Origin: Nitrospirota bacterium
GTDB taxonomy: Bacteria; Nitrospirota; Thermodesulfovibrionia; Thermodesulfovibrionales; UBA9159
Assembly: GCA_023382175.1 (NCBI GenBank)
Contig: JAMCQB010000063.1
Location: 133 to 64,132 of the forward strand
DNA: 64,000 nucleotides
Direction of reading: 5' to 3'
Below are positions 1,672 through 62,574 of the stretch, piece by piece. The translations under genes and the position numbers were made by a program. The notes under the pieces were generated by a model. It had not been told where the DNA came from. It did not search any database and saw nothing but the letters and a program-made list of their open reading frames with translations. The number at the start of each line of letters is the position of its first letter. The stretch's first letter is position 1.

Positions 1672-4446
1672 TTAATCGCCCAGAACACTCTTCAGATACT
1701 TCCCCGTATAGGACTCGCTGACTTTTACGATCTCCTCGGGCGTTCCCTCGAAGATGATCCTGCCGCCCTGGTCGCCGCCCTCGGGTCCGAGATCAACAAT
1801 CCAGTCCGAGGCTGCGATGACGTCAAGGTTATGCTCTATCACCACAACACTATTGCCCGCGTCCACCAGCCTTCGAAGCACATCGATGAGCAGTTTCACG
1901 TCATTGAAATGGAGGCCGACGGTGGGCTCGTCAAGGATATACAGGAATCCTTTACCCCCCCATCCCCCCCTTGCCAAGGGGGGGTGTGAGGGGGGTAGTT
2001 CAGAACATATCTTGAGCCTCTGGGCTTCACCTCCTGACAGGGTGGTGGCGGGCTGCCCCAGCTTGAGGTACCCCAGACCCACCTCTTTCATGAGGGAAAG
2101 CCTGCTGAATACTGCCGGCACATCAGAAAAGACCTCCAGGGCCTCGTCAACGGTCATGTCCAGGACATCGACGATATTCTTGCCCCTATAGATGACCTTC
2201 AGGGCCTCGGGTCTGTATCTCCTGCCGCTGCACTCTTCGCACTTGATAAAAATGTCTTCGAAAAAATACATCTCCATCTTCTGGTACCCCTCTCCCCTGC
2301 ACGTCTCGCATCTCCCTCCCGGCACATTAAAGGAGAAGAACCCCGGGCCGTAACCGTTGGCCTTTGCCTCTATCTGCTCAGAAAAGAGTTTCCTTATCTG
2401 GTCGAATATCTTCAGATACGTCACAGGGTTTGAACGGGGAGACCTGCCTATGGGGGTCTGGTCAATGATCTTCAGTCCCTTTACAAACTCCTTGCCCTGG
2501 AGGGACCGGTAGGGCAGGGGGGTATCCTCCTGAAGGCCGAAACTCTTTGCCAGCGCATGGCAAAGGGTCTCGACAACGAGGCTGCTCTTGCCGGAGCCCG
2601 AGACGCCGGTTACTGCGGTCAACGTCCTCAGAGGAATTGTCAGGTCAACTTCCTTGAGGTTATTTCCCCTCGCACCATAGAGGATGAGTTCCTTCCGCTC
2701 TCTTTTCAGCGGATGCCTGGCATCGCGGCTGAAGGTTATCCTTTCGATGCCTTTCACATACCGCGCGGTTAACGTGTTCGCATTCAGGAATTTTTCCCTG
2801 GGGCCTGAAAAGACGATTTCACCGCCTTTATGGCCGCCGCCGGGACCGAGTTCCACGATCCAGTCCGCAGCCTGTATGATTCCTTTGTCGTGCTCCACTA
2901 CCACTATGGTATTGCCCATTCCGGAGAGTTCAGCCATTATCTTTGCCACCCGTTCCGTGTCCCGTGCATGGAGTCCCACTGTGGGCTCATCCAGGACATA
3001 GAGGGTGCCCGTGAGGTAAGATGCAAGCTGGTTCGAGAGGTTCACGCGCTGATATTCCCCGCCCGAGAGGGTCTTCCCCTGCCTGCTGAGGGTGAGATAG
3101 TCGAGACCGACCCGCTGGAGGAAGGAGAGTTTAAGGGTGATCTGCCGAAGGATCTCTTTTGCCATATCCCTCTGGAACGGTGAAAGGTCAATGTCCCGGA
3201 AGAACCCGGCCAGGTTCACTAGCGGAAGATCGGTAAGCCCTGCGATGTCCAAATGGGAGATCTTGTAGGAGAGCGCCTCTCTCTGGAGCCGCTTGCCGTT
3301 GCATGTGGGACAGACGGAACTTTTCCTGTATCTGCTGAGGAAGACCCTGACATGCAGCTTGTATCTCTTGCTCTCCAGTTCCTCGAAGAAATCGTCGATG
3401 CCGTAGAAATTCGGATCACCCTTGAATATCTTCTCCTTTTCTTCTTCGGAAAATTCCAGGAACGGTTTTTTCAGATCGATCCCCGACTTCTTCGAGCCGG
3501 CCAGGAACTGCCGTTTCCACCATTTTGCAGCAGGTTTTTCCCATGGCTCTATGGCCCCTTCAGACAGGGAGAGGAGTTTATCCGGGAATATGAGGTCCTC
3601 GTCATAGACCAGAATGTTGCCGAACCCCTTGCATTTCTGGCATGCGCCCACCGGATGGTTGAAGGAGAAGAGAAGGGGTGACGGTTCAGGAAGCTCTATC
3701 CCGCACTCATCGCAGGCATTTGAAGCGGTGAATTTCAACACTGTTTTCCGGTTCGACCCGTTATCCACCAGCAGCACCTTTAGCCTCTCATTTCCCTCCC
3801 TCCATGCCATCTCAAGAGAGTCGGAGAGACGGGGGTCGTCCCTTATCACGAGCCTGTCCAGAACTACATCCAGGGGGGAGACCACACCGAACTCCGTGCC
3901 CTCATCAATGTCCACCACCTCATCGTTCACCAGAAAGCGGCGGTATCCCCGTTTCTTCAGCTCTTCAAGGGACTCTCCGGTTTCGAAGAGGATAAGGGCC
4001 TTTCTTCCCTCATACTCTTCTGTCAACAACCGGACGATCTGGGAGGTATCCCATTTTCTGATCTCTTTGCCGCACCGGGGACAGTAGGGCGTCGAGACCT
4101 TTGAATAGAGAAGCCTGAGATAGTCGTATATCTCGGTGAGAGTCCCCACTGTGGAACGGGAACCGCGCACCGGGTTTTTCTGTTCCAGGGCCACGGCGGG
4201 GCGTATATTGTGGATGGCATCCACGTCGGGTCTGTCCAGTTTTTCGAGGAACAGCCTTGCATAGGTAGACATGGATTCGATGAACCTCCACTGGCCTTCC
4301 GCAAATATGGTATCGAAGGCAAGGGATGATTTTCCTGACCCCGACACGCCGGTGACCGCAATGAAGGTATTATGGGGCAGCTTCAGAGTGATGTTTTTGA
4401 GGTTGTTCTGCCGCGCCCCTTCGATTATCAATTCCCGGATTGACAT
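1672..4446 (-). CDS. uvrA: excinuclease ABC subunit A (UvrA family, somewhat divergent)
   Basis: 924 aa with two ABC modules: Walker A GVSGSGKSSLAFDT and GVSGSGKSSLV, signatures LSGGEYQR and LSGGEAQR, Walker B LYVLDEPTVGLH and LYILDEPTVGLH. Several CxxC zinc modules are present. The motif AEGQWRFIESMSTYARLF deviates from canonical UvrA. Confidence 0.85.
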   Translation of the reverse strand: MSIRELIIEGARQNNLKNITLKLPHNTFIAVTGVSGSGKSSLAFDTIFAEGQWRFIESMSTYARLFLEKLDRPDVDAIHNIRPAVALEQKNPVRGSRSTVGTLTEIYDYLRLLYSKVSTPYCPRCGKEIRKWDTSQIVRLLTEEYEGRKALILFETGESLEELKKRGYRRFLVNDEVVDIDEGTEFGVVSPLDVVLDRLVIRDDPRLSDSLEMAWREGNERLKVLLVDNGSNRKTVLKFTASNACDECGIELPEPSPLLFSFNHPVGACQKCKGFGNILVYDEDLIFPDKLLSLSEGAIEPWEKPAAKWWKRQFLAGSKKSGIDLKKPFLEFSEEEKEKIFKGDPNFYGIDDFFEELESKRYKLHVRVFLSRYRKSSVCPTCNGKRLQREALSYKISHLDIAGLTDLPLVNLAGFFRDIDLSPFQRDMAKEILRQITLKLSFLQRVGLDYLTLSRQGKTLSGGEYQRVNLSNQLASYLTGTLYVLDEPTVGLHARDTERVAKIMAELSGMGNTIVVVEHDKGIIQAADWIVELGPGGGHKGGEIVFSGPREKFLNANTLTARYVKGIERITFSRDARHPLKRERKELILYGARGNNLKEVDLTIPLRTLTAVTGVSGSGKSSLVVETLCHALAKSFGLQEDTPLPYRSLQGKEFVKGLKIIDQTPIGRSPRSNPVTYLKIFDQIRKLFSEQIEAKANGYGPGFFSFNVPGGRCETCRGEGYQKMEMYFFEDIFIKCEECSGRRYRPEALKVIYRGKNIVDVLDMTVDEALEVFSDVPAVFSRLSLMKEVGLGYLKLGQPATTLSGGEAQRLKICSELPPSHPPLARGGWGGKGFLYILDEPTVGLHFNDVKLLIDVLRRLVDAGNSVVVIEHNLDVIAASDWIVDLGPEGGDQGGRIIFEGTPEEIVKVSESYTGKYLKSVLGD
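1953..1997. repeat. GC-rich nested palindromic element, copy A (inside the uvrA CDS, in frame)
   Basis: TAC7-AT-C7TTG-C-CAAG7-TGTGA-G6TA, 45 bp. It is translated within UvrA as PPSHPPLARGGWGG, between the second LSGGE signature and Walker B. Confidence 0.75.
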
Positions 4447-29508: not shown

Positions 29509-32169
29509 TCACCTATCCAGCATCTCCCGCACCTTTCTCAGAAGCTCCTTTGGTGAGACAGGCTTCAGGATAAAATCCAATCCCTCTTCAAGTATCCCCT
29601 TTTTATGGATGAGGTTTGCTGTGTAGCCGCTTAGAAACAAGGTCTTTATGCCGGGATTGATTTTTTTGATTTCTTCATAGACCTCTTTGCCGTTCTTCTT
29701 CGGCATTATGACATCGAGGAGTAAAAGTTGTATATCCTCTTTGTTCTCCATGAACTTTTCTATTGCATCCTCCCCATCCTCTGCCGCTATGACTCTGTAC
29801 CCGAATCTCTCAAGTATATCCCTTGTCAGCTTTCTTACAGCCTGATCATCCTCTGCTACAAGCACTGTCTCTGTTCCTCCCTCCGGGTAGGCGGCAGGCA
29901 TTGTACTCGCTGTCTTTTCAACCTCTGATTCAATCAAGGGAAGATATATCTTAAATGTCGTGCCTTTTTGTGGTTCACTGTAGACATTTATAAAACCATC
30001 GTGCTGTTTTACTATCCCGTAGACCATCGCAAGCCCGAGACCCGTGCCCCGGCCGAGTTCTTTGGTCGTGAAGAATGGCTCGAATATCCTCTGCCTCGTC
30101 TTCTCATCCATACCGCTGCCTGAATCTGTTACTGACAATAGGGCATATATCCCGGCCTCTCCATAGCCATGTTTCTTTACATACTCTTCATCAATCTGGA
30201 TGGTTCCGGTCTCTATGATCAAATCACCTCCGACAGGCATGGCATCCCTCGCATTGGTTGCAAGGTTCATCACTATCTGCTCTATCTGGCCCCTGTCTGC
30301 CAATACTGTTAAATCCTTATCTAAAAGCTCTGTCTTTAATTCTATATCCTCGCCTATAATCCTCATTAGAAACTTTTCAACGCCCTTTATGATTTCATTC
30401 AGATTCTGGGGCTTCAGGTCTCTTATCTGCTTTCTGCTGAAGGCGAGTAAGCTCTGTGTCAGATGGGATCCCCTTTCTCCCGCATCAAGTATCTCTTTGA
30501 GATAGGCCCTATTGGGGTCGTCTTCCCTCGTATTCATTTCTATAAGGTTCCCGAATCCTATTATTGCATTGAGGATGTTGTTAAAGTCATGGGCAATGCC
30601 GCCGGCAAGCTGACCAATTGCCTCCATCTTCTGGGCCTGGCGGAACTGTTCTTCTAATTTTTTTCGCTCGGTGATGTCTCGTGTAATGCACACAAAGCCT
30701 GTATGCTCGCCCCTGTCATCCTTCAGTGCGGTGAGCGTCATTTCCACAGGGAATCCCCTTCCATCCTTTTTAATCCTCCCGGTTTCAGCCCTGACAGATC
30801 CTTCCAGGGTCGCTTTTTTGAACCTCTCACGGCATGCCTCTTGAGCCTCCTTCGGGACTATCAAGGAGTGCGGCCTGCCGATGATCTCTTGAGCAGAGTA
30901 GCCAAATAGCATTTCCGCACCGCGGTTCCATGAGACGATGTTAGTATCCAGGTCTATGCCCTCTATTGCATCAGTGGCGTGCTCTGTGATGTTTGCGAGG
31001 AATGCCCGCACCTCTTCAGCCCGGTTACGCTCTGTGATGTCGAGCAGTGTTCCGATGACAGCGGGGCGTCCACGATATACCGTTTTAGAGCCGTAAACTT
31101 CTACATAGATTATCTCTTTATCCTTTGTTATACCTCTAAAATCATAATTAATGGATTCAATCTCACCCGAAATCCGCTTCCGAAGATTTTCCTCAACGAT
31201 CGGCCAATCTTCTGGTAAGACCAGGTCCTCAGGTCCCCTCTTATCTATCAATTCATAGATGGTGTAGCCAAATATCTCAGCCAATCTTGAATTGGCATAC
31301 CTGAAGACCCCGTCCTGTATAAGGTAAACGCCGACTATTGATTTTTCTGCCAGGTCCCTAAATTTGTTCTCCGATTCCCGCAGTGCTTCTTCAGCATGCC
31401 TGCGTTCAATTATTTCGGCCCGCAATGCTTCATTAGCTTTGGCCAGTTCCGCGGTCCGCTCCGCAACTCGCACTTCTAACTCATCATGCGCCTTTCTCAG
31501 CGCTTCTGCATCTCGCTTCCGTTCCGCTATGTCATGACTCGCGTTGTTGATAACAAGTCCCAGACCCAGAACAAAAAATGAAAGTGCAGTATTGAGCGCC
31601 ATTGGTATTGTTGTCCCGCCATAAAGTAATGGCGCACCATAGATGTAACCTAAACAGAAAGCTAAACCAATAAAGGTTGTCAGTCCGGCCAGTACCCTTG
31701 TTAGAGCATCCGCAGACCAGCGTCTTTTCAAAGATGAGGCAAGAAAAAGCGCAACGCTTGCAAACAAGAAATTGAGGGCGGTAGGCAAAGCCATCCGGCC
31801 CACAGGAATAAGACCGAGTTTCTCCGATGGAACCTGAAAAATCCATCTATCAACATCCAGATTAATATTTACACTAATCTCTGTGGATCGGATCAGAGAT
31901 AGAACGAAAATCACGGTAGCGCCGATTCTTGATAATGTAAGACCCCTCTTTCTCTCCGTTAAGAGCGCACAAAGTGATATGCCAAGTACAATGAAGGAGA
32001 GGGCTGTATTTGGCGCCATGGGGATGTAATCTGTCCGTATACCGGAGAGGATTCTCCATCCCGTCAGCCAGCCCACAATGGCAACCACCCCTAATCCTGC
32101 CGCAATGAGACCGCAGAGTTGCGAAAAGAATTTAAAAGGGATTAAAGAATGATTGGATTGAGTGGTCAT
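29509..32169 (-). CDS. hybrid sensor histidine kinase HK1 (multi-TM sensor, PAS x2, HisKA, HATPase, REC)
   Basis: 886 aa. N-terminal polytopic region with a duplicated PMAxNTALSF motif; H-box [11 protein letters not shown]; G-boxes DSGSGMD and GTGLGLA; C-terminal receiver VLVAEDD...[13 protein letters not shown]. Confidence 0.9.
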
Positions 32170-32509: not shown

Positions 32510-32896
32510 TTACTGCTTCCAGGTTGATACAGCATCAACCTTACCCTCTGTCAGGGCATCAAACATCTCCTTTGGACTCAGATTAACGACCTCAACTTCA
32601 TCCCTTAATATCCTATGAGAGATTAAGAAAGTCTCCATGAAGAACTCTCCTTTTATTACTGCATTGAGGGCCTCTTTCCCTGTGTTATATTCTTGAAGCT
32701 TGACATCTAAGCCCTCCTTTTTGAAGTACCCCTTTTCAACTGCAATATACACAGGAGCTCTATGCAGCCCGCTTCCCACAGCATAGGTTATTTTCACAAG
32801 CGGCGCCTGTTTCTGGCTGAACCAGATAGTACCAGCTATAACGACAATCAGAGCCGTCAGAAGAAATGCAAGGACGAGTTTTGGTTTAAGCTTCAT
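32510..32896 (-). pseudogene. remnant of a periplasmic substrate-binding protein (NMT1/SsuA-like) carrying the HK2 leader
   Basis: 128 aa against the ~320 expected. An internal jump occurs after NAVIKGE, and the ORF stops right after VDAVSTWKQ. The first 53 nt including the start are identical to the HK2 5' end (35606..35658). Confidence 0.55.
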
Positions 32897-32953
32897 CTTG
32901 AAACCCTCCTTTTTCTCACCTATCCTCTCCTTATTCCTCCCCTTAGTAAGGGG

Positions 32954-35656
32954 TTAATCCAGCACCCTTCTCACCTTTCTTAAAAGCTCTTTTGGTGAGA
33001 CAGGCTTCAGGATAAAATCCAATCCCTCATCGAGTATCCCCTTTTTATGGATGAGGTTCGCTGTATAGCCGCTTAGAAACAACACCTTTATGCGGGGATT
33101 GATTTTTTTGATTTCTTCATAAACCTCTTTGCCGTTCTTCTTCGGCATTATGACATCAAGGAGTAAAAGCTGAATATCCTCTTTATTGTTCATGAACTTT
33201 TTTATCGCATCCTCCCCGTCCTCCGCCGCTATTACCTTATATCCGAATCTCTCGAGCACATCCCTTGTTAATTTTCTGACTGCCTGATCATCCTCTGCTA
33301 CAAGCACTGTCTCTGTCCCTCCTCCCGTGTAGACAGCCGGCGCAGCACTCACTGCCTCCCCGGCCTCTGATTTAATCAAGGGCAGGTATATCTTAAATGT
33401 CGTGCCTTTCCCAGGTTCACTATAGACATTGATATAGCCGTCATGCTGTTTTACTATCCCGTAGACCATCGCAAGCCCAAGGCCTGTGCCCCTTCCCATC
33501 TCTTTGGTTGTGAAGAAGGGTTCAAATATCCTTTTCCTCGTCTCTTCATCCATACCAATGCCTGAATCTGTAATAGATATTAATGCGTATATTCCCGGCT
33601 CCCCATAGCCATGCATTTTCACATATTCCTCATCCATCTCTGTAATCCCCGTCTCTATGATTAATTCTCCACCATTTGGCATGGCATCCCTCGCATTGGT
33701 TGCAAGGTTCATCAATACCTGCTCTATCTGGCCCCTGTCTACTATTACTGTTAAATCCCCTACCCCCCTTTCAATTCCCCCCTTGCCAAGGGGGGACACA
33801 GAGGGGTCAAAGAGGGGCAAGGAGGGATTTAGTATTGTCTTTAATTCTATATCCTCGCCTATGATCCTCCTTAAAAATTTTCCGACGCTTCTTAATATTT
33901 CATTCAGATTTTCAGATTTTGGACTGATTATCTGTTTTCTGCTGAAGGCGAGCAGACTTTTTGTTAGATGGGCTGCCCTTTCCCCTGCACTGAGTATCTC
34001 TTTTAGATAGGCCCTATTAGGGTCGTCTCCCTTCATATCCATCTCTATGAGGTTCCCGAATCCTATTATTGCATTGAGGATGTTATTAAAGTCATGGGCA
34101 ATGCCGCCAGCGAGTATGCCAATCGCCTCCAACTTCTGGGCATGCCTCAATTGGTCTTCGAGATTCTTGCGCTCTGTGATGTCGCGAGTGATGGTCACGA
34201 AGCCTATGTGCTCCCCTTTCTCGTTTTTCAGTGAGGTAAGCGTCATTTCTGCCGGAAACCGCCTGCCATCCTTCGCAACCCTAAGGGTTTCAGCCGTTTT
34301 GACGAGTCCCTCGAAGGTCGCTTTCTTGAACCTCTCACGGCAGGCATCCTGAGCCTCGTGGGGAACGACCATAGACCATGGCTTTCCGATAACCTCCTTT
34401 GCTTGGTAGCCGAATATCATCTCTGCGCCACGGTTCCACGAGACGATGTTAGTATTCAGGTCCAGACCTACTATCGCATCGGCGGCATGCTCTGTTATGT
34501 TTGCGAGGAATGCCCGCTCCTCCTGCGACTCTGCAAGCTGCGAAGCCATTCTGTTAAATGACGAGGCAAGGTCGCCGATTTCGTCCTTTGATTCAACAGG
34601 GGCGCGGACAGAAAAATCCCCTCCAGCAAGTCCTTGCGTGGCCTTTGAAAGGGCAACCACAGGACGGGAGATTCCATGGGCGATGAGATAGGCTAAGATA
34701 GATGCAAGCAGTGCAATTGCAACGCCCAGCGCAATTACGCGCTTCCTGAGGGACTCAACAGGCGCGAAGGCCTCCCTCGTTTCGATCTCAGTGAGCAGAG
34801 TCCAGCCCCTGCCCGGGATGCACATGGAGGCGCCTATCACCTCCCTGCCGAGATAATTCCTGTAAATTCCGGAGGTTTCTCTTCCGGCGGCGCACTCAAG
34901 CACAGGCAGGGTCTCTACACGCTGCTTCATAAGCTCACTGCTGAATCGTGAAGGGGTAATCAGCAGCTTCTCCTTATTCACCAGGTAGATGTCGAGGGTT
35001 TCCCTCCTGCCCAGCGTGCCGCTTATTGCACCCTTTTCAATCTGGTACTCTCCAGAGAGCATTTTTCTCAGCTCGTCATGGTAGTAAAAATTAATGATCA
35101 CGCCAAGAGGATTGCCGGTCTTTTTATCGGTCAGCGGTGCGGCAGCAGCAATGTATGGCCTCTTTCCCTCTGTGGGGCGGGGAGGTATGTACATATCGCT
35201 TATGTAAACGCCTTTTCCCCCCTGCAGGAAATACTCGTCCTCCGATTCATCAGCGCCTATCTCGCCCTCCTCGGTTGCGGCAATCACCCTTCCTTTCATG
35301 TCCGTGACAAGAATCAGGTAGATACCCATGTCGTGGTGCATCTTGTTGTGCTTCAGGTACATGCTCAGCGCCTTTTGCAGCCCGGTATAGCGCGGGCCTT
35401 TCGGGTCTAACTTCTGCATTGCTTCAGCGCTATTGCGGATGAAGCCGTCAGAGGAAAGCTCCATCGCCCTGTCCTTCGCCATCTCGAAAAAGTGGTAGAG
35501 GACCCACTCTTTAGCTTCGGCTACGAGGGTTAAATCTTCCAATGCCTGCCTTTGCAGCGCTGCCTTAGCGGAGCTGTAGCTCAGGTAGCCGATGACGGCG
35601 ACGGGAATCAGAGCCGTCAGAAGAAATGCAAGGACGAGTTTTGGTTTAAGCTTCAT
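32954..35656 (-). CDS. hybrid sensor histidine kinase HK2 (TM, Cache-like periplasmic domain, HAMP, PAS, HisKA, HATPase, REC)
   Basis: 900 aa. The C-terminal ~500 aa are closely paralogous to HK1 (e.g. [37 protein letters not shown]). The N-terminal sensor differs from HK1. It contains a 21-codon palindromic insert. Confidence 0.9.
33753..33830. repeat. GC-rich nested palindromic element, copy B (inside the HK2 CDS, in frame)
   Basis: AAATCCC-ctaccccccTTTCAATTCCCCCCTTG-C-CAAGGGGGG-acacagaggggtcaaagaggggcaagga-GGGATTT. It encodes ..[23 protein letters not shown].., which is absent from HK1. Confidence 0.8.
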
Positions 35657-60274: not shown

Positions 60275-60702
60275 GATACCGGCTCTATGAGGAAGAGAGG
60301 CTCTCCGTACTCCACCGGCTGACCATTTTCGACCAGGGCCCTCACCACAACACCCTCCGCCTCGCTCTCTATTTCGTTCATCAGCTTCATGGCCTCGATA
60401 ATGCAGATCACCTGTCCCTTCTTCACCCTCGCACCTGCGTCAACAAAAGCAGGCGCGTCCGGCGAAGGGGACCGATAAAATGTCCCGACGATGGGAGCGG
60501 TGACGGTGATAAGCCTCTGAGTCTCTTCATCCGTCTCTGTGGACTTCTCGATAACCGTCGTCCCCTTTGGATGCACTTCAAGAGACGGGAGCAGCATCTG
60601 CCGCCGTATCTTCACCTTTGTCCCGTCCTTCTCCAACTGGAGCTCAGTGATGTCCGTATCCTGGAGAAGGGATATGAGTTCTTTCAGGTCATCAATTTCC
60701 AT
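60271..60702 (-). CDS. accB: acetyl-CoA carboxylase biotin carboxyl carrier protein
   Basis: 143 aa with the [13 protein letters not shown] biotinyl-Lys motif. ATGA overlap with accC. Confidence 0.93.
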
Positions 60703-61262
60703 TATTTAACCCTTTCGATGTATTCCGACGTCCTCGTGTCGATCCTGATCACATCGCCTTCATTGATATGAAAAGGAACCCTCACCACGGCACCGGTTTC
60801 CAGAGTTGCGGGTTTGGAACCCCCTGATGCCGTATCGCCCTTGAACCCCGGATCCGTTTGGGCCACCACAAGCTCCACAAAGGTCGGCAGCTCCACCGTA
60901 AGGGGTTCACCCCGGTAATTCAGTATCTTTACCTTCATGTTTTCCTTTAAGAATTTCCTGGCATCCCCAAGCTTGGACGCGGTAATGGGGATCTGTTCAA
61001 AGGTCTCCGTATCCATGAAGTAACGGAAATCTCCCTCCGCATAGAGGAACTGCATCTCTTTCTCTTCAAGGTTGGGGGTCTCGAATTTCTCTCCCGACCT
61101 GAAGGTATCCTCAAGAACATTGCCTGTTTTCAGACTCTTCATCTTTGTCCTGATGATGGCCCCTCCTCTCCCCATCTTGACATGCTGGAAATCGACGATT
61201 TCACAGGGCTCTCCCTTGTACTCTATTTTTGCGCCTTTCCTGAATTCATTTGTCGAAATCAA
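60702..61262 (-). CDS. efp: elongation factor P
   Basis: The start was moved to the TTG at 61262, which has AAGGAGG 6 nt upstream, giving (M)[18 protein letters not shown] (186 aa). The ORF-track extension MPSPLEGEGWVVG.. is a translated palindromic repeat. Confidence 0.92.
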
Positions 61263-61297
61263 TGCAACCCTCCTTTTTAAAACATATGACAAGCCCA

Positions 61298-61342
61298 CCA
61301 CCCATCCCTCCCCCTCGAGGGGGGAGGGCAAGGGAGGGGGTG
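61298..61342. repeat. GC-rich nested palindromic element, copy C (intergenic, pepP/efp)
   Basis: CCACCCATCCCTCCCCCTCGAGGGGGGAGGGCAAGGGAGGGGGTG, centred on CTCGAG. It has the same C-run-AT-C-run / G-run-spacer-G-run architecture and the same 45-bp length as copy A. Confidence 0.75.
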
Positions 61343-61359
61343 AAAATCTATTACTTTTT

Positions 61360-62574
61360 CTATATAATTTCCAGACTCCTCGGCAATTTTGTCAATACTT
61401 CCGGTCCATCCGGTTTCACCAGGACCATGTCCTCGATGCGTACCCCACCGAGTCCCGGAAGATAGATTCCCGGCTCCACCGTGAATACCATACTTTCTTC
61501 CAGGGTCTCGCTCCTTGCCCAGGAGATACGTGGCAGCTCATGGACCTCCAGACCCACACCGTGCCCAGTCCCGTGACCGAAGAATTCTCCATACCCGGCA
61601 CTTTTTATAACATCCCTTGCAGCGCTGTCAACCGTCCTGCTTTCGGCGCCTGCCCTTACCGCTGAAACCGCCCGTCTGTTTGCATCAAGCACGTGCCGGA
61701 ATATCTCCCTTTTCCTGGTCAAATCTTCGCCGCGACCATTGGAAGATCCGGATCCTTTGATCAGGAATGTCCTTGTCATATCGGAATAATATCCCCCGGC
61801 TTCTCCCCCCCAGTCCACAACAACGAGGTCCCCGGCGGAAAGTTTCCTGGAGGTAGCCCCGGCATGGGGCATGGCCGCGTTATCCCCGGATGCCACTATT
61901 ATATCAAATGGGATTCGATTACACCCTCTTTTTTTCAGCCTCTCCTCCAGCATGAGGGCTATCTCCCTCTCCCTCCTGCCCTGCCGTATATGCGGCCTGA
62001 CATCGCGGAAGGCATCCTCTGCACGCCTCACCGCCTCCCGTATGGAGCGTATTTCCTCACGGTCTTTCACTTCCCTCAATCTCTCAACGGCATCCCGGAA
62101 GGGCTTAAGTCCGGCGCCGCATTGTGAGAGCCCTTTAAAAAATTCGTACGCAACAGCGGACTCAAAGCCGAGGGTGCGTATTCCGAGGTTCGCAATGAGG
62201 TTTTTTATGATTTTGAGCCTGTCCCCTTTTTCAATGATAATGTCCCATCCGATCCCTCCCCTGGGAGGAGGAAACTCCGTTCTCTTTTCAATGCCCCCAA
62301 CGGAAAGCTCTCTCTCCGCCTGTTCCTTATACCTGAAGTCAGTAACAAATATATTCTTATTTTTCGTGATCAGGACGAAGCCTGAGGAACCCGTGAAACC
62401 GGAAAGGTATCTGACATTGGCGACAGTGGTGACAAGGAATCCCTGCGTCCTCTTCTTCTCGAAGGATTCCCGTAACCCGGCAAGGCGCAATGGGAGATGG
62501 CCGGAAATGGTACTACCCCCTGGAGAGAATGTTTTTTGCAGCAATAAGGGCGAGCAGGTAGCTGTCCGCTCCAA
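61360..62574 (-). CDS. pepP: Xaa-Pro aminopeptidase (M24B family)
   Basis: Creatinase-like N-domain plus the M24 domain ([23 protein letters not shown]). The start is uncertain: the first ATG overlaps aroQ by 62 nt, and a TTG near 62481 is an alternative. It contains a probable 20-codon repeat insert. Confidence 0.88.
62248..62307. repeat. probable GC-rich palindromic element, copy D (inside the pepP CDS, in frame)
   Basis: It encodes [20 protein letters not shown] between KEQAERE and WDIIIEKG. The DNA has CCCTCCCCTGGGAGGAGG and CTCCGTT..TTTCAATGCCCCC..AACGGA. It shares TTTCAAT-N-CCCCC (GGIE[KR] at the peptide level) with copy B. Confidence 0.5.

Follow-up and report, generated by a model that had tools for sequence, protein, structure and literature searches.

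Rickettsia palindromic elements (RPEs; Ogata et al. 2000) are described as small non-autonomous palindromic repeats that lie in frame in housekeeping open reading frames (ORFs) (PMC10969869, PMC3733652). The peptide segments that they add are compatible with the protein fold, and repair and replication genes are among the hosts (PMC10969869, PMC3733652). RPEs have a length of about 100 to 150 bp and are reported from the genus Rickettsia. Here, we describe a short hairpin element that lies in frame in a hybrid histidine kinase gene (HK2) of a Nitrospirota bacterium. The sequence analysed, called the window below, is a 64,000-nt stretch of contig JAMCQB010000063.1 (positions 133 to 64,132, forward strand; assembly GCA_023382175.1). 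The best homologues of its proteins are from Nitrospirae/Thermodesulfovibrionales. HK2 contains 21 codons that its paralogue HK1 does not contain. They are best explained as one copy of a non-autonomous hairpin repeat, short and rich in GC, that resembles RPEs, repetitive extragenic palindromes (REPs), and the cyanobacterial SDRs.

REPs are GC-rich stem-loops of 20 to 40 nt with 6- to 13-bp stems and 2- to 4-nt loops, dispersed in many copies that stand alone, form inverted dimers, or are clustered (PMC3733652, PMC3116915). GTAG- and CGTC-tagged REPs were found in eight phyla, Cyanobacteria and Planctomycetes included (Di Nocera et al. 2013, PMC3733652). The unpaired tetranucleotide is present at one end in >90% of the members. 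Intragenic in-frame REPs were also found, many of them in uvrA, uvrB, uvrD, recBCD, and polymerase genes (Di Nocera et al. 2013, PMC3733652). REPINs are mobilized by the REP-associated tyrosine transposase (RAYT) (Bertels and Rainey 2011, PMC3116915). Bacterial MITEs (miniature transposable elements with inverted repeats; Correia/NEMIS, Nezha, and ERIC) are non-autonomous, dispersed, and sometimes fused in frame to ORFs (PMC10969869). They are 70 to 300 bp long and contain transposase-derived terminal inverted repeats and target-site duplications (PMC10969869). The cyanobacterial SDRs are reported to be 21 to 27 nt long and restricted to Nostocaceae, and SDR5 reportedly inserts precisely inside HIP1 (GCGATCGC). 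SDR4-6 of Nostocaceae are reportedly tiny hairpin-like mobile repeats that do not encode a transposase and are nested in other repeats, as Elhai et al. are said to have described in 2008 in Genome Res 18:1484.

The kinase locus contains the following features.

32954..35656, minus strand: HK2, hybrid histidine kinase of 900 aa (dCache-HAMP-PAS-HisKA-HATPase-REC), host gene of the insert
29509..32169, downstream of HK2: HK1, the paralogue, an 886-aa ORF
33753..33830, minus strand: 78-nt composite in HK2 (AAATCCC...GGGGATTT, coding strand), net gain over HK1 of 63 nt
30307..30333, minus strand: empty site in HK1 (ACAGAGCTTTTAGATAAGGATTTAACA), from the HK1/HK2 DNA alignment
33762..33807, minus strand: 46-nt family unit ACCCC-TCTGTGT-CCCCCC-TTGGCAA-GGGGGG-AATTGAAA-GGGGGG-T, nhmmer E 5e-13
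33776..33796, unstranded: core hairpin TCCCCCCTTG C CAAGGGGGGA, perfect arms of 10+10 nt (100% complementary) with 1 nt between them

HK1 and HK2 align closely as proteins from the last PAS domain through HisKA-HATPase to REC. The domain list of HK2 was taken over from a close relative, P0241, which had 98% identity to the N-terminal part of HK2 in a protein database search. HK2 contains 21 extra residues after GEDIELKT, and the DNA alignment contains a single 63-column gap, equal to 21 codons. The composite encodes 25 residues in HK2, and the plus-strand sequence at its position is AAATCCCCTACCCCCCTTTCAATTCCCCCCTTGCCAAGGGGGGACACAGAGGGGTCAAAGAGGGGCAAGGAGGGATTT. The original prediction had given the same 78-bp sequence and coordinates, a close paralogue pair with 21 extra HK2 codons, and a coding frame without stops, and the alignments and the intact HK2 ORF bear it out on each of these points. 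It had also placed the two kinases in tandem. They are not directly adjacent, and a 128-aa ORF lies between them. The reading frame of HK2 is unbroken across the insert. The H-box, N-box, G1, F, and G2 motifs are all intact in the alignment with HK1, from which we infer that the HK2 kinase is still functional.

The HisKA-HATPase part of HK2 was searched against 5.8 billion proteins, and the best 120 matches were aligned. The HK1-like spacing (25 to 26 residues from GEDIE to DxGQxEQ) was present in 115/120. Of the homologues that share the sensor architecture and cover the insert site, P0245 (Nitrospirae, 56% identity, dCache-HAMP-PAS sensor) is the nearest, and it has the short form there. Because these 115 homologues and P0245 share the short spacing, a deletion in HK1 is not viable. 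Judged by these alignments, HK1 is the ancestral state, the empty site that it had been taken for, and the HK2 insertion is derived. Two further searches for HK2 itself added little. Orthologues sought by the sensor domain in 185,579 genomes were distant relatives only, and an exact-protein look-up of HK2 returned no record.

Other inserts in exactly this loop were present in 5/120 homologues. DNA was fetched for three of the five, and each encodes its own nested C-run/G-run element (P0011, P0001, and P0026, with centres TCTTATTTTAAGA, TCTTAATTTAAGAGA, and TTTACTAAA). No homologue among the 120 aligned contained the same 21 residues without palindromic DNA, as had been anticipated. The kinase loop is, from these homologues, a recurrent landing or survival site. 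P0044 contains a 30-residue insert in the same loop (around ESSQFTVNGSQTAKAAVVLNREPSTVNNEQS) without C/G-run character, so the loop tolerates unrelated insertions too.

The core arms are at 33776-33785 (TCCCCCCTTG) and 33787-33796 (CAAGGGGGGA). Outer 8-nt arms (TAAATCCC at 33752-33759 and GGGATTTA at 33824-33831) enclose the whole segment. Folded as RNA on the coding (mRNA) strand, the HK2 insert forms one long hairpin at -43.1 kcal/mol (z -3.4), and the core hairpin has -16.3 kcal/mol. The plus strand of the insert folded as DNA was unexceptional (z -1.15). The spacers of the family are non-complementary, with a mean of 0.33 vs. 0.385 in shuffled pairs. The element is therefore oriented and is palindromic in its runs and centre only. 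The nested inverted repeat of the original prediction holds for the perfect core and the outer arms but not for the family spacers, and a true nested palindrome with compensatory spacers was rejected because their complementarity was not above that of shuffled pairs.

The 46-nt consensus was open in 5/6 frames when read by eye and without a tool. The unit holds few possible stop codons and encodes a Pro/Gly-rich peptide in any frame or orientation. The window has a GC content of 51% and contained no overall excess of C/G runs (113 vs. 102 +/- 9 expected). The nested C-run/G-run pattern occurred twice, vs. 0.04 expected. As the run count is near expectation, the signal is one of arrangement and not of composition. 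No Rfam family was found in the window at the gathering threshold, and the insert had noise-level matches only.

The DHp-CA region of HK2 was modelled with AlphaFold2 from an input of 64 homologues. The mean pLDDT was 82.7. The insert (residues about 108-134) was modelled as coil with a pLDDT of about 50. It lies between strand 102-107 (IELKTI) and strand 135-138 (TVIV), with the N-box helix (140-157) directly after. A loop before the N-box was the placement that the original prediction had suggested checking. The two flanking strands are the first two of the ATP-binding domain. In an alignment to CckA (5idj), the insert falls at the same hairpin. In the model, the insert persists as an additional floppy protein loop.

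The window was searched with a family profile for nhmmer that contained 89 unique sequences from other genomes, with near-palindromic copies gathered on both strands. The following sites were retrieved or considered besides the HK2 insert.

1954..1996, minus strand: uvrA copy, 43 nt, in frame (ACCCCCC-TCACA-C7-TTGGCAA-G7-AT-G7-T), profile E 1e-9
61297..61341, unstranded: hairpin of a variant C-run/G-run type (CCCCCTCGAGGGGGG and the runs that flank it), in the spacer between pepP and efp, with a weak match to the family (profile E about 4)
62248..62307, minus strand: candidate decayed copy in pepP, a 17-residue insertion relative to solved prolidases
32924..32954, unstranded: short hairpin of related type (CCCCTTAGTAAGGGG), immediately 3' of the stop codon of HK2, profile E 0.79

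The 17-mer CCCCCTTGCCAAGGGGG has two exact occurrences in the window, at 1966 and 33778. A search with it gave 5 matches vs. 0.38 expected, and 0/100 shuffles reached 5. In all, the 64 kb contained two strong and two or three weak copies. Related palindromes had been predicted in uvrA, in pepP, and upstream of efp. The uvrA copy is clear, the efp-upstream one is weak, and the pepP site had no significant match to the family profile. As the pepP site coincides with the 17-residue insertion, it is plausible that it is a decayed copy.

The uvrA gene (1672..4446, minus strand) contains ACCCCCCTCACACCCCCCCTTGGCAAGGGGGGGATGGGGGGGT, which encodes PPSHPPLARGGWGG. This peptide lies between the C-terminal ABC signature LSGGEAQR and the Walker B motif LYILDEPT. 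The net gain is 9 residues, and all solved UvrA structures have a 9-residue gap at this point. The closest UvrA homologues (P0121 and P0122, 85-86% identity) read SELSVGSKSDFLYILDEPT and do not contain the element. About 24/120 homologues have a longer loop at the site. At the DNA level, P0136 (PPLGKAG) and P0224 (PPLAKGG) contain recognizable but decayed copies. The loop inserts of UvrA homologues, which were gathered by protein similarity, are mostly decayed beyond recognition. The UvrA proteins P0123, P0149, and P0168 of other Nitrospirota contain a different recurrent insert type in the same loop (GIGDRGLGISKANPQPPTPKPG and GIRDQSLGINKNQSLKTNPQPHN). It may derive from another repeat family.

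The longest efp ORF (60702..61331) uses a TTG start within the hairpin, which places MPSPLEGEGW... upstream of the conserved ISTNEFRKG start. The true efp start is probably downstream, which would place the hairpin in the pepP-efp spacer. As RNA, this hairpin has -33.5 kcal/mol (z -2.7). The pepP gene (61360..62574) also contains a second insert, of 9 residues (around KGSGSSNGR), relative to solved prolidases.

Copies in other genomes were retrieved with an exact scan for CCCCCCTTGCCAAGGGGGG, which covered one genome per species (596 Gb). It returned >119 loci, where we estimate that about 4 are expected by chance. Exact-core scans gave >200 copies in other genomes, and these and the uvrA copy of the same window are the further copies that the original prediction called for. 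The CCCCCCTTGCCAAGGGGGG matches listed fall in three groups, Cyanobacteria, Planctomycetota, and Nitrospirota/Thermodesulfovibrionia. The cyanobacterial matches include complete genomes of Scytonema, Nostoc, and Tolypothrix, and those from Planctomycetota are from Gemmataceae, Phycisphaerae, and Isosphaeraceae. A few were from Patescibacteria, Chloroflexota, Calditrichia, and others. Among the matches listed, several genomes, related metagenome-assembled genomes (MAGs) among them, contained 5 to 16 exact-core copies each. The core was also present in 10 viral contigs, a number too small to support a phage vector.

The scan loci have a common architecture, A-C6-spacer-C6-TTGSCAA-G6-spacer-G6-T. 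A narrower scan with GTCCCCCCTTGSCAAGGGGGGAA returned 94 loci and defined a Nitrospirota subfamily, ACCCC-TCT(G/A/C)(T/A)GT-C6-TTGSCAA-G6-AATT(A/G)AA-G6-T. The HK2 core fits the oriented repeat A-C4-6-TCTRTGT-C6-TTGSCAA-G6-AATTRAA-G6-T. The HK2 unit is a near-consensus member of the subfamily, and near-identical copies are present in many Nitrospirota MAGs at unrelated sites. The left spacers are alike across the three phyla (TCTGTGT/TCTCAGT, TCAGT, and TTAGT), and this resemblance argues for homology rather than convergence of the cross-phylum copies. The family is strongly polar, as the fetched loci contained 202 hairpins in C-run-to-G-run order and 22 in the reverse order. TTGCCAA, the motif by which those loci were fetched, is present in 137 of the 202. 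Among the other hairpin centres, TTAGCAA and TTACCAA were the commonest, and they follow TTNNNAA.

The entire 78-nt HK2 insert, with an asymmetric left module of 28 nt, recurs at a locus of another genome (L178). This copy has the opposite orientation and encodes 27 residues in the 539-aa ORF of a PMT_2-type glycosyltransferase. Because the complete insert recurs there, its outer boundaries are those of a real repeated unit. A metagenome scan for the left module matched only the 3' end of a tRNA-Leu gene, probably by chance. The left module (AAATCCCNCCTNGCCC...TTTNACCCC; 33803..33830 and L178) matches the T-arm/acceptor 3' end and trailer of tRNA-Leu(CAG) at L285 35-62 and L286 2090-2117, in two metagenome contigs. 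The likeness is probably fortuitous, and an origin of the left module of the composite from a tRNA end is the less likely reading.

Family copies in genes were counted in loci with <53% G+C, and a copy was called intragenic when the ORF was open for >=60 codons on both sides. In these loci, 25/77 copies were inside long ORFs vs. 54% for random positions. In the Nitrospirota subfamily, the count was 19/47 (13 forward and 6 reverse). About 30-40% of the family copies in low-GC genomes thus lie within long ORFs of real genes. Pfam domains span the insert in GATase (HisH), GlnE, and two helicases, one of the DEAD-box and one of the UvrD type. The Pfam match of the PMT glycosyltransferase ends just upstream of the insert. 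Further hosts, from our own reading of motifs without a tool, are MutL, EF4/LepA, WD40 proteins, and several N6-adenine methyltransferases. The relatives of hisH retrieved by protein similarity are empty at this site, and the gain in L167 is +21 residues. In the kinase, UvrA, and HisH, the same loops have been filled more than once, in different lineages. By these counts, intragenic copies are common and lie in evidently permissive loops of real genes. Old copies evidently decay in place and leave lineage-specific loop expansions.

The peptides encoded in the different frames include PPLAKGG, PPLPRGG, PPCQGG, and SPLGKGG. The convergence on P-L-x-K/R-G-G that had been noted does recur, but it is a by-product of a C-run, TTG, and a G-run in any frame, so it is no sign of peptide-level function. 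A selected peptide-level motif was rejected, as were an intein and a CRISPR remnant, because some copies are intergenic and the copies as a whole use several frames and both orientations.

Some copies are part of larger repeats. A ~110-nt lineage-specific element of Nostocales embeds the core hairpin. A Gemmataceae MAG contains inverted core doublets about 130 nt apart (REPIN-like). In Nitrospirae, the core was found within a TTTTGCC...GGCAAAA hairpin element. The larger-repeat loci are L008, L012, L063, L072, L100, L103, L110, L113, and L116; L010, L031, and L111; and L003, L005, L027, L101, and L193. Many cyanobacterial copies (e.g., L023, L024, L030, L039, L052, and L068) are bracketed by GAT...ATC or lie in a GCGATC context. 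The hisH locus L151, from a Nitrospirota MAG, contains four tandem CCCCAAT heptamers just 3' of the element, and these resemble the cyanobacterial STRR heptamer repeats.

The 128-aa ORF between HK2 and HK1 is at 32510..32896 on the minus strand. It shares its first 17 residues with HK2 and contains a duplicate of ~64 nt from the 5' end of HK2. This sequence suggests a segmental duplication or rearrangement of the locus. Logan contig L377 (1..3169; SRR28401836) is from a close relative and is the contig of P0241. In it, the upstream region and sensor half of HK2 are followed by the PAS-kinase-receiver half and downstream flank of HK1. The half derived from HK1 is ~98% identical to the window. 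The contig skips 3.4 kb and contains frameshifts. It is either a true recombinational deletion between paralogues or a chimeric assembly. It was rejected as an empty-site HK2 orthologue because of the joint between the HK2 5' half and the HK1 3' half and because of the frameshifts.

We consider the HK2 insert to be a small non-autonomous REP/RPE-like hairpin element that was inserted after the HK1/HK2 duplication (probability roughly 0.8). That the sequence spreads as a unit is shown by near-identical copies of 43 to 78 nt at unrelated loci, both in the window and in many genomes. Its movement would depend on an enzyme provided in trans, and insertion would not be targeted by primary sequence. 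Copies that break the frame or the fold would be purged by selection, and the remaining copies would accumulate in the same tolerant loops. The conserved hairpin and the absence of target-site duplications may point to a single-strand HUH/Y1 route (RAYT or IS200-like). Y1 TnpA(REP) classes with high-copy hairpins are known in Cyanobacteria and Planctomycetes (PMC6006769), which makes an HUH-type route our leading guess, a tentative one that is more probably wrong than right.

Several results weigh against a mobile element. The junctions are unclean, and the length of the 46-nt unit is not divisible by three. The net gain is 63 nt in HK2, 27 nt in uvrA, and 63 nt in hisH, which differs from the unit length and means that host bases have been lost or filler has been gained. 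The surviving net gains are all multiples of three. Comparison with the empty sites gave no target-site duplication at the HK2, uvrA, and hisH junctions, and the sequences that flank the copies share no conserved motif. When the genes within about 4 kb of 119 loci were clustered, neither a transposase nor a gene that recurred beside the copies was found. The window and ~1.6 Mb around the copies were also scanned crudely for HUH/Y motifs, with no candidate found. The 64 kb of the source genome contains only two strong copies. Orthologous intragenic copies appear better conserved than their flanks, in loci that were picked by the core motif.

That conservation is also a point in favour of a host function, in which selection would keep an RNA or DNA hairpin (for mRNA stability, translation pausing, or supercoiling) or a useful flexible linker. 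Across four Nitrospiraceae species, the orthologous copies inside hisH and a methyltransferase are more conserved than the flanking codons, the predicted mRNA hairpin is very stable (-43 kcal/mol), and REPs are believed to work at the RNA level (PMC3733652). However, the comparison is biased because the conserved loci were chosen for an exact match to a 23-mer of the core, and the UvrA loop inserts, whose homologues were chosen by protein similarity, are mostly decayed. The host genes are also unrelated, the elements lie in them in either orientation and in several frames, and we regard a host function as unlikely. An origin in place by palindrome-building slippage or template switching, with the likeness elsewhere a convergence on a low-complexity C-run/G-run pattern, would fit the untidy junctions without target duplications and the tandem and nested arrangements found elsewhere. 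The left arm AAATCC is, moreover, the reverse complement of GGATTT, which is present at the empty HK1 site. Yet the asymmetric spacers TCTGTGT and AATTGAAA are nearly base-for-base common to unrelated genes and genomes, and the 28-nt left module is shared with L178. So many copies with matching asymmetric spacers already largely refute pure convergence. Fold-back also predicts complementary spacers, and the spacers are non-complementary. This origin is quite unlikely.

The remaining two explanations concern the reality of the insertion. If the 21 residues were ancestral, HK1 and most homologues would have deleted them. The bare indel fits this, but the short spacing in HK1 and 115/120 homologues would need repeated precise deletions, P0245 has the same sensor architecture without the insert, and the segment itself is close to the consensus of a dispersed repeat. 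We consider an ancestral segment very improbable and in effect refuted. An assembly or sequencing artefact could be suspected from L377, which joins the two paralogues without the element, as such a pair can confuse assemblers. L377 is itself frameshifted and simply follows the HK1 sequence, whereas the reading frame of HK2 is intact across the insert and the family is present in complete genomes and in hundreds of independent assemblies. The chance of an artefact is negligible. The insertion of a mobile hairpin element remains the preferred explanation.

The repeat family seems to cross phylum boundaries. A stronger proposal would be one homologous ~45-nt hairpin element (ACCCCCC-TYAGT-CCCCCC-TTGSCAA-GGGGGG-AA) that has spread horizontally over at least Nitrospirota, Cyanobacteria, Planctomycetota, and candidate phyla, and that inserts frequently into conserved domains encoded by housekeeping and DNA-repair genes, protein-free and duplication-free. 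We hold this to be doubtful. If it is true, it would imply a widely shared trans-acting mobilization route, through a host repair or replication function or an unrecognized HUH-type enzyme, and it would be a general source of loop indels in bacterial proteins. The element accounts for lineage-specific loop insertions in conserved proteins, namely, UvrA (between the signature and Walker B), the first hairpin of the kinase ATP domain, and HisH. Annotators and structure modellers should note that Pro/Gly-rich loops of the PPLxKGG type can be repeat derived. The compact and recognizable hairpin is also a handle for tracking down the mobilizing enzyme.

Compared with MITEs, the present family is likewise non-autonomous, dispersed, and in frame in ORFs. 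The 78-nt composite contains the outer arms AAATCCC/GGGATTT. It differs from MITEs in that there is no target-site duplication at HK2, uvrA, or hisH. It is like the SDRs in that many cyanobacterial copies are flanked by GAT...ATC, which fits insertion into GATC/HIP1 sites, as reported for SDR5. Going by the SDR descriptions, it differs in being longer and present in several phyla. The cyanobacterial SDRs may be related to it.

The stem C6TT(G)/(C)AAG6, with a centre of 1 to 3 nt, is within the 6- to 13-bp range of REPs. The family does not have the GTAG/CGTC tag, and the HK2 and uvrA copies end in GGGGGGTAG. In ~230 copies, only the G-run+T and A+C-run ends are conserved. It also has additional outer C/G runs with conserved non-complementary spacers. 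Because the terminal tag is absent and the outer runs are extra, we did not file the family under the GTAG/CGTC superfamilies. No RAYT was found near the copies by neighbour clustering or by the crude HUH/Y scan, with ~8 kb searched per copy. A search of the supplement of Di Nocera et al. (2013) gave no C6/G6 families, and a literal text search of 8 million papers gave no match to the core motif. The behaviour had been put forward as not known to be described for this element type, but in-frame REP palindromes in ORFs were already reported (PMC3733652). The kind of phenomenon is known, and the present family, its occurrence in Nitrospirota, and its spread across phyla appear to be undescribed.

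The closest likeness drawn by the original prediction, that to RPEs, is apt, since both are small palindromic repeats that persist in frame as added loops. Going by the RPE descriptions, the family is set apart by its unit of 43 to 46 nt, its composite of 78 nt, and its C6/G6 runs. It is found in Nitrospirota, Cyanobacteria, Planctomycetota, and other phyla, and RPEs are reported from Rickettsia. Like RPEs, it contributes in-frame peptide segments, here to HK2, uvrA, HisH, UvrD, a DEAD helicase, GlnE, and PMT. It extends palindromic selfish DNA inside genes from Rickettsia and the proteobacterial REPs to Nitrospirota.

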